From positions 29,517 to 93,516 of the forward strand of contig DFRJ01000001.1 in the NCBI GenBank assembly GCA_002378195.1: a stretch of DNA of 64,000 nucleotides, in the 5' to 3' direction. Under the pieces are notes generated by a model. That model was not told where the DNA came from. It saw only the letters and a list, made by a program, of their open reading frames with translations, and did not search any database. Of this stretch, positions 3,046-64,000 are shown piece by piece; the first letter of the stretch is position 1; each line of letters begins with the position of its first letter. The DNA comes from Patescibacteria group bacterium UBA3466 (lineage in GTDB: Bacteria; Patescibacteriota; Minisyncoccia; Phycocordibacterales; UBA918). Made by a program: the position numbers and the translations under genes.

Positions 3046-3954
3046 ATGGCAAGCAATAATCCTTTTGCGATAATTGGACTAAGCCCAGATGCAATGAGAG
3101 GTCTGTCTAACGCACAAATTAAGAAGGTTATTAAAAACCTTGTGAGAGGTTTGCAGTCTGTCCACCATGAAGATGTTGGTGGTAAGCCAGGCAAAATGTC
3201 AGAGATCAACGTTGCCGTTGACGCTCTGTCAGATCCAAAAGCTTTTGATAGGTACAAGAAGAAATACCTACACAAGTCTCCTCAGAAGAAAAAGATCTCT
3301 GAACTAGAGAACCAACTTAGGGAGACAGAAAAGGCTAGCCTGGAAGAAGCTAATCGACTTTGGGCATACATCACAACCCTCACGGGGCATAACATTTATG
3401 AAGGAGCGACTATTGTCTCTGCTCGAAATGTGTATGTAAGTGACGACGTGACCCAAATCAAGAGAAGATTCCTCCGGGGAACAGACTGGCATAAAATGGA
3501 TTCTCAGATTGAAGCATATACTTTTTACCGTATGTCCATAGAAACGGGCGTACTCACAAAAGAGTTTCTTCAGCAGTCTAGCCCTACATCGCCAGTTGAA
3601 ATTTTTCTTACTCGGAATGAATCAAGCGACGAAAGAGTTATTGTTGGATGTCTTAGCGAATCTGAAATCCGTAAACTCGGTGGTAGGGAATCAGTTCTCT
3701 TCTTACTACAGGGCGCGCGGGAAATTCCTAATGAGGGTATTGCCAAATTATCTGGTCTCGCCAGAGATAGGATCATTACCAATGAGTATCACGTCGACAA
3801 TTTTAAGGTAATTCTGCCTTTGTTGTCTCCAGAGATTACCATTGGCGGCATGCTTTTTTCTTTAGTGATTAATCCTAACGGTCTTAATCATATTGAATAC
3901 GATGGAAGAGTGGTCAATAGGCCAATAAACATCAGTAAGTATGGCTGGTTGTAG
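3046..3954 (+). CDS. Protein with a degenerate J-domain (HPD replaced by HED) and an unknown C-terminal domain
   Basis: The stretch NPFAIIGLSPDAMRGLSNAQIKKVIKNLVRGLQSVHHEDVGG...AVDALSDPKAFDRYKK follows the DnaJ J-domain helix pattern, with HED in place of HPD. The start was moved to the ATG at 3046, which has an RBS (aagggaga), because the track start at 3013 lies inside the upstream hairpin. Confidence 0.55.
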   Translation: MASNNPFAIIGLSPDAMRGLSNAQIKKVIKNLVRGLQSVHHEDVGGKPGKMSEINVAVDALSDPKAFDRYKKKYLHKSPQKKKISELENQLRETEKASLEEANRLWAYITTLTGHNIYEGATIVSARNVYVSDDVTQIKRRFLRGTDWHKMDSQIEAYTFYRMSIETGVLTKEFLQQSSPTSPVEIFLTRNESSDERVIVGCLSESEIRKLGGRESVLFLLQGAREIPNEGIAKLSGLARDRIITNEYHVDNFKVILPLLSPEITIGGMLFSLVINPNGLNHIEYDGRVVNRPINISKYGWL

Positions 3955-4000
3955 CACCACCTATTCAAATGGCGCTTTTGTTAAGCGCCTTTTTTCTTTT

Positions 4001-5332
4001 CTACCACCCCAACTTCTTCATTGCTTCGAAGACCCGGGCAAAGCCAGCGATATTCGCACCATTTACATAATCAATGTTTCCATCTTTGTCTTTTCCATAC
4101 TTCACACACTGATCGTGAATCTTGCCCATAATTTTTTTCAATTCTGCTTCCACCTCTTCACAACTCCATGCGTAGTGAGCAGCGTTTTGAGCCATCTCAA
4201 TTCCAGACACCGTTACCCCTCCCGCATTGGCTGCTTTACCAGGTGCAAACAGAGTTTTGTTTTCTCGCACTACTTCTACAGCTTCGTCATCAAGCGGCAT
4301 ATTTGCCCCCTCAACTATGAACTTGGCATGCTTAATCATTGCTCGAGCATCAACGCCGCTAACCTCGTTCTGTGTAGCGCAAGAAAAATATGCGTCGGCT
4401 GCTACTTGCTGCCAGGGCTTTCCTTCTTTGTATACAGCGCCATTAATCACAATTTCGCTCATATTTTTGCCGTTACCACGAGCCTCCACTATCGTATCTA
4501 CATCTTTATGAGTCAGGCCATCTTCCTTAAAGATAAAGCCACACCGATCAGACATAGTCATCACTTTCACGCCAAAGTCTGTTAGTTTCTTTGCAGTATG
4601 TGATGCCACATTACCGGCGCCCGACACTACAGCCGTAAGGCCTTTCATTTCAATATTATTTGCTTTGGCCAACGCTTCGGTGAAATACACCACCCCATTT
4701 CCCGTCGCTTCAGTCCGTCGACACGACCCTCCGAAAAGCTCATCCTTACCGGTTAGCACTCCCTCATTTCGATTAGTAATCTCTTTGTACATGCCGTACA
4801 TGTAACCTATCTCTCGCCCTCCTACTCCGATGTCTCCAGCGGGCACATCAGTTTCAATTCCAATATGGCGATACAATTCGAGGATAAACGCTCGGCAAAA
4901 AGATCGTATTTCGTTATCGCTCCTCCCTCGGGGATCAAAATCACTTCCACCCTTACCGCCCCCGAGACGAAGACCTGTAAGAGAATTTTTAAAGATTTGT
5001 TCAAAGCCCAAGAACTTCAAAACGTCTTCATTTACTGACGGGTCAAATCGCAATCCTCCTTTATACGGACCAAGAGCTGAGTTGAATTGCACCCGATAAC
5101 CAGTATTAATCTGTCGTTTCCCCTCATCATCTGTCCAAGTGACTTTGAAAGAAATGATTCGCTCTGGTTCGGTCATCCGTCGTATCAAATGGTAATCCTC
5201 ATCTGAAAAATCATGGTCGGTGACATAACCATCGATACTTTCATATACTTCTTTTACTGTCTGCAAGAAGGTTTTTTGGTGTGAGTGCTTTTCAAGCAAA
5301 TCACTATAGATGGCTTGTAGTTCGGTATTCAT
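4001..5332 (-). CDS. gdhA: NADP-specific glutamate dehydrogenase
   Basis: The product carries the GGGKGGSDFDP motif of the Glu/Leu/Phe/Val dehydrogenase family and is 443 aa long. Confidence 0.9.
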   Translation of the reverse strand: MNTELQAIYSDLLEKHSHQKTFLQTVKEVYESIDGYVTDHDFSDEDYHLIRRMTEPERIISFKVTWTDDEGKRQINTGYRVQFNSALGPYKGGLRFDPSVNEDVLKFLGFEQIFKNSLTGLRLGGGKGGSDFDPRGRSDNEIRSFCRAFILELYRHIGIETDVPAGDIGVGGREIGYMYGMYKEITNRNEGVLTGKDELFGGSCRRTEATGNGVVYFTEALAKANNIEMKGLTAVVSGAGNVASHTAKKLTDFGVKVMTMSDRCGFIFKEDGLTHKDVDTIVEARGNGKNMSEIVINGAVYKEGKPWQQVAADAYFSCATQNEVSGVDARAMIKHAKFIVEGANMPLDDEAVEVVRENKTLFAPGKAANAGGVTVSGIEMAQNAAHYAWSCEEVEAELKKIMGKIHDQCVKYGKDKDGNIDYVNGANIAGFARVFEAMKKLGW

Positions 5333-62428: not shown

Positions 62429-62499
62429 CGGGGTGTAGCATAATGGTAGTGTACACGGTTTGGGACCGTGCGGCCCGGGTTCGATTCCCGGCTCCCCGA
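62429..62499 (+). tRNA. tRNA-Pro (anticodon TGG)
   Basis: The hand fold gives acceptor cggggtg/ctccccg with one mismatch at 6:67, D-arm gcat/gtgt with two G-U pairs, anticodon stem cacgg/ccgtg with loop tttggga, and T-arm ccggg-ttcgatt-cccgg. A terminator hairpin follows at 62508-62540. Confidence 0.75.
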
Positions 62500-62624
62500 C
62501 AGCGAGTAAAATGGTCAGACTGTAGTCTGGCCATTTTACTTCTGTGGCCGGGATCGAAAAGGTTAGTCAGGTACTTTTGCGAATGCTTGGAGCAAAATAT
62601 CGACAACCTGCACTGAACCTGTAA

Positions 62625-62648
62625 GGTTCGATTCCCGGCTCCCCGACA
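62625..62648 (+). repeat. 24-nt duplicate of the tRNA-Pro 3' end (att-like scar)
   Basis: ggttcgattcccggctccccgaca is identical to 62478-62501, and the preceding T-stem strand is absent, so this copy is not a tRNA. Confidence 0.85.
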
Positions 62649-62749
62649 AAGAATTGAATAATCGGACCGTAGGTCTGATTATTTTTATTTTATGACCGCG
62701 ATCGAAGTGGCTAGTCGGACATCGTACATAAGAGGTTTACTGACTGAAT

Positions 62750-62765
62750 TGTTTCACGTGAAACG
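62750..62765. promoter_or_regulatory. parS-like site 1
   Basis: tgtttcacgtgaaacg matches the ParB-binding consensus tGTTtCACGTGAAACa at 15 of 16 positions. Confidence 0.7.
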
Positions 62766-62818
62766 TGAATCACGCGGCGTAAACCCCTGGCAAAATGCCT
62801 GATTTGCTACACATGAAA

Positions 62819-63268
62819 CTAACCTAGCACAATATTCCTCATATACTTAGCAGTAGCATACTTTTCACGTGGAACTATTCTAACTGCAATAACATCCACT
62901 TCCCACTCCCCATCATAGTCATTCTCCATAATCCAACTTTCAATTGCCCTATTCAGCCGCCTGATCTTAGAATAATGTACATTTTCCTCTGGCCGCCAGG
63001 TTCCACGTGAAATAGCCTCATCAAGTTCCCTCTTTGTTTCATATGAAACAGTTTTTACCTCAACAAACCTAATAATAGCGCTATTTTTAGTAGTTTCACG
63101 TGCAACAATGTCTATTTCTCCCCATTTTTTAAGGTAATTTACCTGCAATACTGCAAAACCCTTCCTTTTTAGGTAATTTGTGGCAATTTCCTCCCCAAGA
63201 GCGCCAATTTTATTCTTTTCTCCTTGTTTATCGCTTTGTTTCATGTGTAACAGATCAAAATGTTTCAC
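62819..63268 (-). CDS. yraN: YraN-family (UPF0102) endonuclease
   Basis: GEEIATNYLKRKGFAVLQVNY...GEIDIVARE...IRFVEVKT matches the YraN/UPF0102 pattern. Confidence 0.75.
   Translation of the reverse strand: MKHFDLLHMKQSDKQGEKNKIGALGEEIATNYLKRKGFAVLQVNYLKKWGEIDIVARETTKNSAIIRFVEVKTVSYETKRELDEAISRGTWRPEENVHYSKIRRLNRAIESWIMENDYDGEWEVDVIAVRIVPREKYATAKYMRNIVLG
62861..62876. promoter_or_regulatory. parS-like site 2 (weak)
   Basis: cttttcacgtggaact matches at 12 of 16 positions and lies inside the yraN coding sequence, where it encodes PREK. Confidence 0.4.
62999..63014. promoter_or_regulatory. parS-like site 3
   Basis: ggttccacgtgaaata matches at 13-14 of 16 positions, the TGTTCCAC variant known from Bacillus. 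It lies inside yraN, where it encodes ISRGT. Confidence 0.55.
63092..63107. promoter_or_regulatory. parS-like site 4
   Basis: agtttcacgtgcaaca matches at 14 of 16 positions and lies inside yraN, where it encodes VARET. Confidence 0.55.
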
Positions 63269-63275
63269 GTGAAAC
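63260..63275. promoter_or_regulatory. parS-like site 5
   Basis: tgtttcacgtgaaacg matches at 15 of 16 positions, is identical to site 1, and lies at the yraN start. Confidence 0.7.
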
Positions 63276-63346
63276 GTTTAGATCTTAGCGTTTATTAAAT
63301 GTTTTATAAAAAACCCTTGTATTATAACACTTTTTTATAAAGGACA

Positions 63347-63414
63347 TTTGGATAATAGATCTGTGGATTGTCCCTTATCCACCTATCCACACAGTTTTCC
63401 CCAGTTATCCACAG
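63347..63414. promoter_or_regulatory. DnaA-box cluster (candidate oriC or DnaA-regulated region)
   Basis: The boxes are tgtggattg (63363, reverse complement of caatccaca), ttatccacc (63376), ctatccaca (63384) and the perfect ttatccaca (63406), plus tttggataa (63347). An AT-rich stretch lies just upstream (63281-63345). Confidence 0.6.
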
Positions 63415-63496
63415 CTAAATTGATCAAACCACACAGCCATGATTACAAATGTCTGCGGCCTAACCCCCGTGGGCTATGAGATGATCCCCAGGGAGG

Positions 63497-63609
63497 GTGG
63501 CTGCAGGGAATCGGTCACCTATTCAGCCTAGTCTTAAGTACTTGGTGCCCCAGCTCGCCTATTTTCTCCCTTATGAGGGGGAGAAAATTATGGCTCCGCT
63601 TCACAAATA
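63497..63609 (-). repeat. Mosaic element copy B, flanked by a tRNA-Gly(GCC) 3'-end duplicate
   Basis: The reverse complement gaagcggagccataattttctccccctcataagggagaaaataggcgagctggggcaccaagtactta...ggtgacc|gattccctgcagcc matches A. Its terminal gctgcagggaatcg matches the tRNA-Gly(GCC) 3' end gctacagggaatcg at 13 of 14 positions. Confidence 0.7.
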
Positions 63610-63687
63610 GTGTACGCAAGCCAAGCAGTTGGCTTGCTATAAACAAAATCACCTGATTACTCAGGTGATTTTGCTTATACACTTTTG

Positions 63688-63758
63688 TGCGGCTACAGGG
63701 AATCGAACCCTGATCTTATCGTTGGCAACGATACGTTCTACCACTAAACTATAGCCGC
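63688..63758 (-). tRNA. tRNA-Gly (anticodon GCC)
   Basis: The minus-strand hand fold gives acceptor gcggcta/tagccgc, D-arm gttt/gaac, anticodon stem tatcg/cgata with loop ttgccaa, and T-arm caggg-ttcgatt-ccctg. A palindromic terminator lies at 63646-63675. Confidence 0.85.
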
Positions 63759-63770
63759 TTATTTATTGTC

Positions 63771-64000
63771 TTACCAAGACTTTTTAACTAATTGCACCCA
63801 AGCTTTTAGTTTTTGTTTGTGGTAAGTGCTGGCGATTATAGTATTTCCCACGCTTTTCTGCAACACTTTATCTGAACTCTTATTTACAAACTGATTCTTG
63901 TAAAAGGCGGTGTAGGGAAGAGAAGTGCATTTAGACCACTGTTTCATGGCTTTTTCTTCGCTTGCTTGGCCGTAAAGCTGCAACCAAAGGTGGATTTTGG
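63771..64000 (-). CDS. C-terminal fragment of an unidentified protein, running off the window edge
   Basis: The reading frame stays open to position 64000. The M in the track corresponds to a TTG, not an ATG, so this is the 3' part of a longer gene. Confidence 0.3.
   Translation of the reverse strand, partial: KIHLWLQLYGQASEEKAMKQWSKCTSLPYTAFYKNQFVNKSSDKVLQKSVGNTIIASTYHKQKLKAWVQLVKKSW

Follow-up and report, generated by a model that had tools for sequence, protein, structure and literature searches.

The 64,000-nucleotide stretch of the genome of Patescibacteria group bacterium UBA3466 analysed here (contig DFRJ01000001.1, positions 29,517 to 93,516; hereafter the window) contains an array of palindromes resembling parS, the chromosomal binding site of ParB, laid over the small gene yraN. 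On the basis of its sequence, the segment 62750-63276 is probably a compact chromosomal centromere, i.e., a ParB-loading site, embedded in yraN and with a putative DnaA-bound promoter region beside it. A search of the window with the parS consensus TGTTTCACGTGAAACA, allowing up to three mismatches, recovered six matches against 0.35 expected, a number reached in none of 100 shuffles. All six fall within these 527 bp and none elsewhere in the window. Two further copies matching at 12 of 16 positions (62861 and 62803) give eight sites covering yraN, the outermost of which lie 32 bp upstream of the ATG and 54 bp beyond the stop codon; their order is strong, weak, four internal, weak, strong (Table 1). 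Measured against the canonical 16-bp parS palindrome (tGTTNCACGTGAAACa), two of these match at 15 positions and the other six at 12-14. The five 16-mers listed in the original prediction are all present at their coordinates, but that tally was incomplete, having missed the copies at 63035 and 63237 (14/16 each) and at 62803 (12/16); likewise, sites had been correctly placed inside the yraN frame, but they number four rather than three. The site at the stop codon is an inverted copy of the one at the start codon (62800-62822 against 63235-63257; 23 nt, 87% complementary).

The conservation of this arrangement was assessed by scanning one genome per species with a YraN alignment, which yielded 80 loci with 39-77% protein identity. 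In 74 of these yraN could be located, and the corresponding 74 species of Paceibacteria are the basis of the array counts. Sites with at most three mismatches number 333 in the 63 kb of the yraN zone (from -100 to 350 bp past the yraN stop) as opposed to 83 in the other 1,078 kb; their density is 5.3 per kb at yraN, 0.42 per kb in the 2.4 kb upstream and 0.011-0.022 per kb in the remaining 919 kb. At a threshold of two mismatches, the same three compartments hold 129, 32 and 2 sites, respectively. At least four parS-like sites are found in 63 of the 74 loci, and none in the five far-left loci (111 kb). Across the 1.5 Mb of sampled sequence on which confinement was tested, parS is hence rare and restricted to a single region.

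Further, the sites lie in register across the relatives, at -33, -8, +137, +182/194, +218/230 and +356/368, with one or two more past the stop. Copies with no more than one mismatch occur at about -33 to -80, many relatives carry the start-codon site at -8, and most have a strong site past the yraN stop. This register is still recognizable in loci whose YraN identity is as low as 39-45%, and these retain a perfect or near-perfect site directly before the gene. The internal copies become indistinct in the most distant loci, and because the upstream site is kept there, comparison of the sequences suggests that the array began at a flanking site and grew into yraN. A logo built from 230 non-coding sites of 75 loci reads tGTT(t/c)CACGTGAAACa, which is the canonical parS, and positions beyond the 16 bp carry no information. 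The array of some relatives continues into unrelated genes upstream, where copies occur on either strand and mostly in the V-S-R-E-T phase, and the presence of copies in such unrelated neighbours argues that the conserved entity is the DNA site and not a motif of the YraN protein. Such extensions were seen in upstream genes of 574, 537, 212-229, 173 and 185 aa, at -200 to -2300 from yraN (loci L038, L071, L048, L059 and L091).

The proposal that the sites are under a dual coding and binding constraint is supported, both by the array keeping its register in the 74 species and by the constraint on synonymous codons at the internal sites. In a codon alignment of 75 yraN genes, codon usage among the sequences carrying the major amino acid of each column was compared with that of the flanking genes. 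The 13 most biased synonymous codon columns all lie within the four internal sites, and the median Kullback-Leibler divergence is 0.80 bits inside the sites versus 0.08 outside (Mann-Whitney p=5e-8). At site D, CCA, CGT and GAA are used in 98%, 100% and 88% of cases, as against 37%, 23% and 63% in the flanking genes of the 75 species. The corresponding values at site C are 96% for GTT, 88% for TCA and 72% for GGA (background 29%, 23% and 26%), and at site A 73% for GTT, 80% for GCA and 85% for CGT (background 29%, 24% and 23%); site B uses GTT (97%), TCA (88%), TAT (98%), GAA (100%) and ACA (63%). That the internal sites share a reading frame is in part a matter of necessity, as a TGA occurs in one of the palindrome's three frames. 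Additionally, the M-K-Q at the N-terminus, nearly invariant in the homolog alignment, is what the parS half-site over the ATG encodes. These patterns indicate that the codons of yraN have been moulded to keep the sites, and some residues of the protein (M-K-Q, VSYET, VPREK) probably have been as well. As a side observation, YraN is unusually conserved for a small protein, its best 120 hits being 65-80% identical across several candidate groups; this conservation may be imposed in part by the embedded DNA sites.

Conversely, the repeats could be regarded as by-products of YraN peptide motifs or of mRNA hairpins rather than as DNA-binding sites. Site A indeed overlaps a motif beside the catalytic aspartate, where the YraN structure PDB 3FOV has LVAQRD, and every palindrome could form a small RNA hairpin. 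However, synonymous positions are fixed far beyond the expectation from codon usage, the strongest copies are non-coding, further copies occur on either strand of unrelated neighbour genes, and it is the exact sequence that is kept and not compensatory pairs. This explanation is thereby largely refuted, and we consider it highly improbable.

With respect to the protein that binds the array, COG1475, which bore the old label "predicted transcriptional regulators", is the ParB/Spo0J family, and COG1192 corresponds to ParA/Soj. COG1475 belongs to the core genes of the Parcubacteria, being present in 13 of 16 genomes (Nelson and Stegen 2015, PMC4508563 Table S1), and the same core list includes DnaA and SMC but not COG1192. 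Given that COG1475 is a core gene and that the logo is exactly the canonical one, ParB would be the most economical binder. The absence of COG1192 from the core list, for its part, hints at a ParB-parS system devoid of ParA. Streptococcus pneumoniae has a ParB-parS-SMC system without ParA, and by analogy one is conceivable in this lineage.

A binder other than ParB, for instance a dedicated repressor, YraN or the conserved HTH_23 protein encoded next to it, would instead imply that the palindromes serve local regulation or some other function and not partition. In line with this, no ParB was seen near the locus (in the window and the fetched flanks), a gene for a 219-aa helix-turn-helix (HTH) protein is syntenic upstream in 53 loci, the sites overlap the promoter leader and the start and stop codons of yraN, and ParA is missing from the Parcubacteria core list. 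This reading is nevertheless difficult to reconcile with a logo that comprises the full 16-bp parS and thus more than a CACGTG core, or with the core status of the ParB family; further, a repressor needs one or two operators and not 5-10 sites running through a coding sequence and its neighbour genes. Hence, we accord it little probability.

If the array is loaded by ParB, its layout of two near-perfect palindromes flanking yraN and six weaker ones, of which one covers the start codon, four lie in frame inside the gene (V-x-R/Y-E/G-T/K) and one is at the stop codon, would offer ParB dimers (COG1475) two sites of high and six of lower affinity on which to nucleate within 0.53 kb. The dimers could then close as clamps dependent on cytidine triphosphate (CTP), slide out and spread, and the resulting partition complex would load SMC and, where ParA exists, drive segregation. 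Concentrating many sites of graded affinity in 0.5 kb might serve to raise the loading rate at a single locus. ParB occupancy may additionally affect the expression of yraN, as the sites cover its leader, start codon and gene body. DnaA may do so too, given that DnaA boxes and an AGGACA/TGTCCTTTA repeat lie within the yraN promoter region. The analysis shows how the sequence is laid out, that the sites are enriched and conserved between species, that synonymous positions are constrained and that the skew does not invert; ParB as the binder, the loading of clamps and a regulatory role for DnaA are inferred.

The cluster of DnaA boxes that the original prediction had noted next to the array is real and conserved across the relatives. 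Four boxes with at most one mismatch (63347 on the minus strand, 63375, 63383 and 63405) lie within 67 bp. Such boxes are not enriched in the window as a whole (11 found versus 14.75 expected), and the chance of 4 of the 11 falling within 67 bp is below 1e-6 by a rough estimate. Over the 74 loci, the bin from -200 to -100 holds 116 boxes (1.57 per locus) against a background of 0.034 per 100 bp, an approximately 46-fold enrichment, and the boxes are conserved in 72 of 75 loci. In the relatives, two tandem boxes at a distance of 20 bp are the usual arrangement, about 125-145 bp ahead of the yraN ATG, and the orientation of the boxes is uniform, with 132 of 135 sharing one direction.

The 100 bp adjoining the boxes have an AT content of 0.68-0.70 versus 0.57. 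The extended -10 motif TGnTAnAAT occurs there on the sense strand in 30 of the 74 loci and never on the antisense strand, as compared with a mean of 4.7 loci after shuffling; on account of this strand-specific, conserved element, the AT-rich stretch is interpreted as a promoter. A consensus promoter scan that needs a match to the -35 element did not have the extended -10 element in its output. Between the predicted promoter and the boxes, GGATAAAGGACA is found with at most one mismatch in 55 of the 74 loci, and the boxes together with the AGGACA/TGTCCTTTA repeat occupy the -35 to -100 region of the yraN promoter. In the relatives, the inverted repeat formed by AGGACA and TGTCCTTTA abuts the proximal DnaA box, at about -125 to -85 from the yraN ATG, and in more distant ones direct AGGACA repeats are found in its place.

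This anatomy bears on the claim that the locus is the replication origin region, according to which the DnaA-box cluster and the AT-rich stretch would constitute an oriC fused to the parS array, away from dnaA. Apart from the conserved, locally enriched boxes and the AT-richness of the adjoining 100 bp, the total GC skew can be cited in its favor: in 45 of 45 loci it is positive on the right side of yraN, and on the left it is about zero. Gene orientation also diverges at yraN, with over 90% of the genes just to its right pointing rightward and about 85% of those from -6 to -32 kb pointing leftward. Additionally, parS sites are origin-proximal in most cases.

However, once the strand component is separated from the gene-orientation component at third (GC3) and four-fold degenerate (GC4) codon positions, the asymmetry does not invert. 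The replication component of GC3 is +0.18 to the right and +0.05 to the left of yraN, and the far-left GC3 value exceeds +0.05 in 32 of 46 loci and falls below -0.05 in 2 of 46. The GC4 component is +0.14 to +0.18 to the right and about zero in the 10 kb directly left of yraN; beyond that, as far as -32 kb, it amounts to +0.07 to +0.24 in three long contigs and in a near-identical contig of 84 kb. Thus, GC3 and GC4 keep one polarity from -32 kb to +64 kb, their sign holding across the 64-kb window, and the sign change expected at an oriC is not seen; this covers 46 species to -10 kb and the three long contigs to -32 kb. A walk leftward by way of ClpC-like and PNPase homologs (JACKGF010000001.1, JACKGH010000001.1 and CP060229.1, in which yraN lies at 826.6, 849.6 and 302.6 kb, respectively) met neither a skew inversion nor dnaA as far as -32 kb. 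The flat total skew to the left is fully accounted for by gene orientation, because the genes there lie on the other strand, and not by a change in the direction of replication. The kink in total GC skew at yraN therefore follows from the change in gene orientation, and it was dropped as evidence for an origin upon separation of the two components. Skew at AT3 and TA4, which is dominated by the coding strand and uninformative, was also discarded as an indicator, as were contig start positions as a marker of dnaA, these being unverifiable. The strand asymmetry would place the origin more than 32 kb to the right of the window. About 85% of the genes left of yraN, including rpsO, pnp, a clpC-like gene, comM and uvrD, lie on the C-rich strand (L094-L098, from the three contigs of the walk); provided that the asymmetry is due to replication, such a head-on block would be unusual.

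The gene content is no more indicative of an origin. Motif scans and phmmer searches of 99 sources (1.52 Mb) gave no hit for dnaA, dnaN, rpmH, gidA, parA or parB, and of the four genes relative to which the site was to be located, namely dnaA, dnaN, parA and parB, none lies within the window or the fetched flanks. The range searched comprised the 64-kb window, 10 kb on either side of the 80 loci and the extra 22 kb walked; the phmmer queries were the B. subtilis DnaA, Soj and Spo0J sequences, complemented by the signature-motif scans. Pfam annotation of 30 open reading frames (ORFs) of the window likewise yielded no origin indicator gene. The presence of such genes next to oriC is usual, but not obligatory.

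The geometry of the boxes points in the same direction. A TTATCCACA-oriented box has the unwinding element on its 3' side both in the R1-DUE (DNA unwinding element) of E. coli and in the basal unwinding system, BUS (PMC8287927). Here, the TTATCCACA reading of 132 of the 135 boxes points away from the AT-rich DNA, so that this stretch, which had been proposed as an origin element and holds the yraN promoter, is on the opposite side. The side canonical for unwinding is neither AT-rich nor conserved and shows no DnaA-trios, and most loci have just two or three boxes. With a skew that does not invert, no indicator genes, a promoter in the AT-rich DNA and boxes facing the wrong way, the assignment of the locus to the origin region is not supported, and an oriC at this position appears unlikely. 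Instead, the tandem boxes, which lie 90-170 bp upstream and directly before the yraN promoter, most likely belong to a promoter region that responds to DnaA or form a cluster for DnaA binding next to the centromere, and are not an unwinding origin.

Two bolder interpretations of the module of DnaA boxes, promoter and parS/yraN can be entertained, though together they too strike us as doubtful. It could be a fused origin-centromere of the Paceibacteria that lies far from dnaA and at which the asymmetry does not invert; or it could be a checkpoint, at which DnaA and ParB jointly control a centromere-encoded, Holliday-junction-resolvase-like nuclease. The latter device, if true, would link initiation status with ParB loading and with DNA processing, and this in a lineage perhaps devoid of ParA.

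Several observations weigh against the interpretation of the array as a ParB-loading centromere. Neither parB nor parA is found in the 64-kb window or in any fetched flank, and the choice of binder draws on the motif and the literature. Six of the eight sites in the window differ from the consensus at 2-4 positions, and in two the central CG is affected (CATATG and CATGTG). Confinement applies to the 1.5 Mb of sampled sequence, and further parS sites may lie elsewhere in these genomes. Finally, the divergence of gene orientation at yraN is the very pattern expected at an origin.

Table 1. Coordinates of the features at and around yraN in the window.
Feature	Position	Strand	Remarks
tRNA-Pro	62429-62500	+	
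Strong parS site	62750-62765		15/16, TGTTTCACGTGAAACG; 54 bp downstream of yraN stop
Weak parS-like site	62803-62818		12/16, core CACATG; abuts yraN stop codon
yraN (UPF0102) CDS	62819..63244	-	141 aa from ATG at 63244; Pfam PF02021, E=5e-18
Internal site D	62861-62876		12/16; encodes V-P-R-E-K
Internal site C	62999-63014		13/16 against fixed consensus (14/16 if position 5 = N); encodes I-S-R-G-T
Internal site B	63035-63050		14/16, TGTTTCATATGAAACA; perfect palindrome with CATATG core; encodes V-S-Y-E-T
Internal site A	63092-63107		14/16; encodes V-A-R-E-T; directly after catalytic GEID motif
Start-codon site	63237-63252		14/16, TGTTTCATGTGTAACA; over yraN ATG (..ACAC ATG AAA CA = M-K-Q)
Strong parS site	63261-63276		15/16, TGTTTCACGTGAAACG; 32 bp upstream of ATG, predicted 5' leader
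Predicted extended -10 promoter element of yraN	63321..63329	-	TGTTATAAT; read from sequence
Inverted repeat	63336..63374		TAAAGGACA ... TGTCCC; between promoter and DnaA boxes
DnaA-box cluster	63347..63413		63347(-) TTATCCAAA; 63363(-) CAATCCACA (2 mismatches); 63375 TTATCCACC; 63383 CTATCCACA; 63405 TTATCCACA (perfect)
tRNA-Gly	63687-63758	-	

The ORF 62819-63268 matches the Pfam family UPF0102/YraN (PF02021, E=5e-18). Of 25 aligned homologs (134-168 aa, most of them 137-141), 21 begin at the aligned MKQ, and the most likely start is therefore the ATG at 63244, which gives 141 aa, and not the GTG at 63268. The catalytic motifs GE-I-D ... E-V-K are found, the D and E-V-K being invariant in the homolog alignment. 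The predicted structure (pLDDT 79.5) matches archaeal Hjc resolvases and PDB 3FOV, the sole solved YraN structure, the latter by sequence profile as well as by fold (E=7e-6, TM 0.78). In this structural model, YraN has a PD-(D/E)xK, Hjc-like nuclease fold. The homologs carry the names Nomurabacteria, Kaiserbacteria or Paceibacteria in their sources, and the identical sequence is also present in the marine metagenome-assembled genome GCA_002320355.1.

In the window, yraN on the minus strand is preceded by tRNA-Pro and a second copy of a tRNA 3' half, and followed by a 418-bp intergenic region and tRNA-Gly. By Pfam, the neighbours include CorA, an M3 peptidase, a sigma factor with DUF5667, MscS, PGK, TIM, NusA, trigger factor and RNase Y, i.e., housekeeping genes or genes typical of the candidate phyla radiation (CPR). 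The presence of nusA, tig, pgk, tpiA, rny and tRNA genes provides the chromosomal context for a centromere. Together with the names of the YraN homologs, this gene content identifies the DNA as part of a Parcubacteria chromosome. A search of the intergenic regions against Rfam yielded nothing beyond tRNAs. Some further peculiarities of the neighbourhood were observed. The 3' half of tRNA-Pro is doubled together with a downstream hairpin (62478-62525 and 62625-62672, 147 bp apart, 48 nt, 81% identical), and from its sequence this duplication beside the parS array looks like an att-type integration scar. The 219-aa protein with an N-terminal HTH_23 domain is encoded from 63771 to the window end at 64000 (continuing to about 64430; 3853-4512 in the related locus L001), and its gene is syntenic upstream of yraN in 53 species. 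A paralog lies 2 kb further on (1804-2481 in L001), and a tRNA gene begins no more than about 20 bp after either of the two. A GC-richer spacer of about 220 bp (63420-63640) separates the DnaA boxes from the bidirectional terminator of tRNA-Gly; it has no Rfam match and does not occur in the 284-bp intergenic region of the related locus L008.

The CPR, including the Parcubacteria, are uncultivated, and to our knowledge almost nothing is known of how their approximately 1-Mb chromosomes are replicated and segregated. For such a lineage, the locus offers a sharply defined, class-wide candidate centromere. It also appears to exemplify overlapping codes, in which codon choice, and probably some residues, have been shaped by an array of DNA sites over long evolutionary time. 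Further, it counsels caution in origin prediction, as an origin can be mimicked when AT-rich DNA, a DnaA-box cluster and a parS array coincide with a kink in total GC skew. Literature searches on parS with yraN or Parcubacteria, and on CPR origins, retrieved nothing specific; Chen et al. 2020 (PMC7111523) state in general terms only that inflections of the skew are usually found close to dnaA. Sites of parS inside genes, clustered parS near origins, DnaA clusters outside oriC and DnaA boxes on a partition operon are all already known. We found no record, however, of an array so dense, placed in frame within one small orthologous gene, with codon adaptation and a fixed DnaA-box/promoter module, throughout a CPR class.

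Among the known systems, the E. coli datA and DARS loci are DnaA-box clusters outside oriC. Comparable clusters are the DnaA-box clusters (DBCs) of B. subtilis (PMC3245932), and the gidA-parAB region of P. aeruginosa has a DnaA-regulated promoter on a partition operon (PMC13438810). The yraN locus resembles these in that a small number of consensus boxes stand in tandem next to a promoter, at a distance from an unwinding origin and with a link to partition. It differs in the coupling of the boxes to the AGGACA/TGTCCTTTA repeat and in their position immediately beside a parS array. The BUS consists of tandem DnaA boxes with a spacer of at most 16 bp, DnaA-trios and AT-rich DNA (PMC8287927). The boxes upstream of yraN are likewise tandem, of one orientation and near an AT-rich region; unlike in the BUS, that region is on the opposite side, the canonical side has neither trios nor AT-rich DNA, and there is no skew inversion.

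With plasmid centromeres made of iterated sites, such as F sopC, P1 parS and RK2 OB, the array shares a high density of sites over a few hundred bp. Those, however, are plasmid-specific non-coding repeats, whereas the yraN array uses the canonical chromosomal motif in a housekeeping chromosomal context. The ParB/Spo0J-parS system of B. subtilis reportedly has 8-10 sites of the consensus tGTTNCACGTGAAACa, one of them inside spo0J itself. The same 16-bp palindrome, the tolerance of sites within coding sequences and the restriction to a single chromosomal neighbourhood are common to both. The B. subtilis sites are nonetheless spread over hundreds of kb at one per gene, as opposed to 5-10 sites in 0.5-2.5 kb at yraN, where four in-frame sites with measurable codon adaptation occupy 141 codons and the array is not beside parAB. 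Clustered chromosomal parS arrays are also found in Caulobacter, Streptomyces and Myxococcus. Likewise, parS1-4 of P. aeruginosa are clustered near oriC (PMC4368675) and Corynebacterium glutamicum has about 10 clustered sites (PMC7083940). In these, as is proposed for yraN, several sites of graded quality make up one ParB/SMC loading zone. However, such arrays span about 5-70 kb or more, whereas the yraN array is an order of magnitude denser and is anchored, unlike any of them, to one orthologous gene across a whole class.

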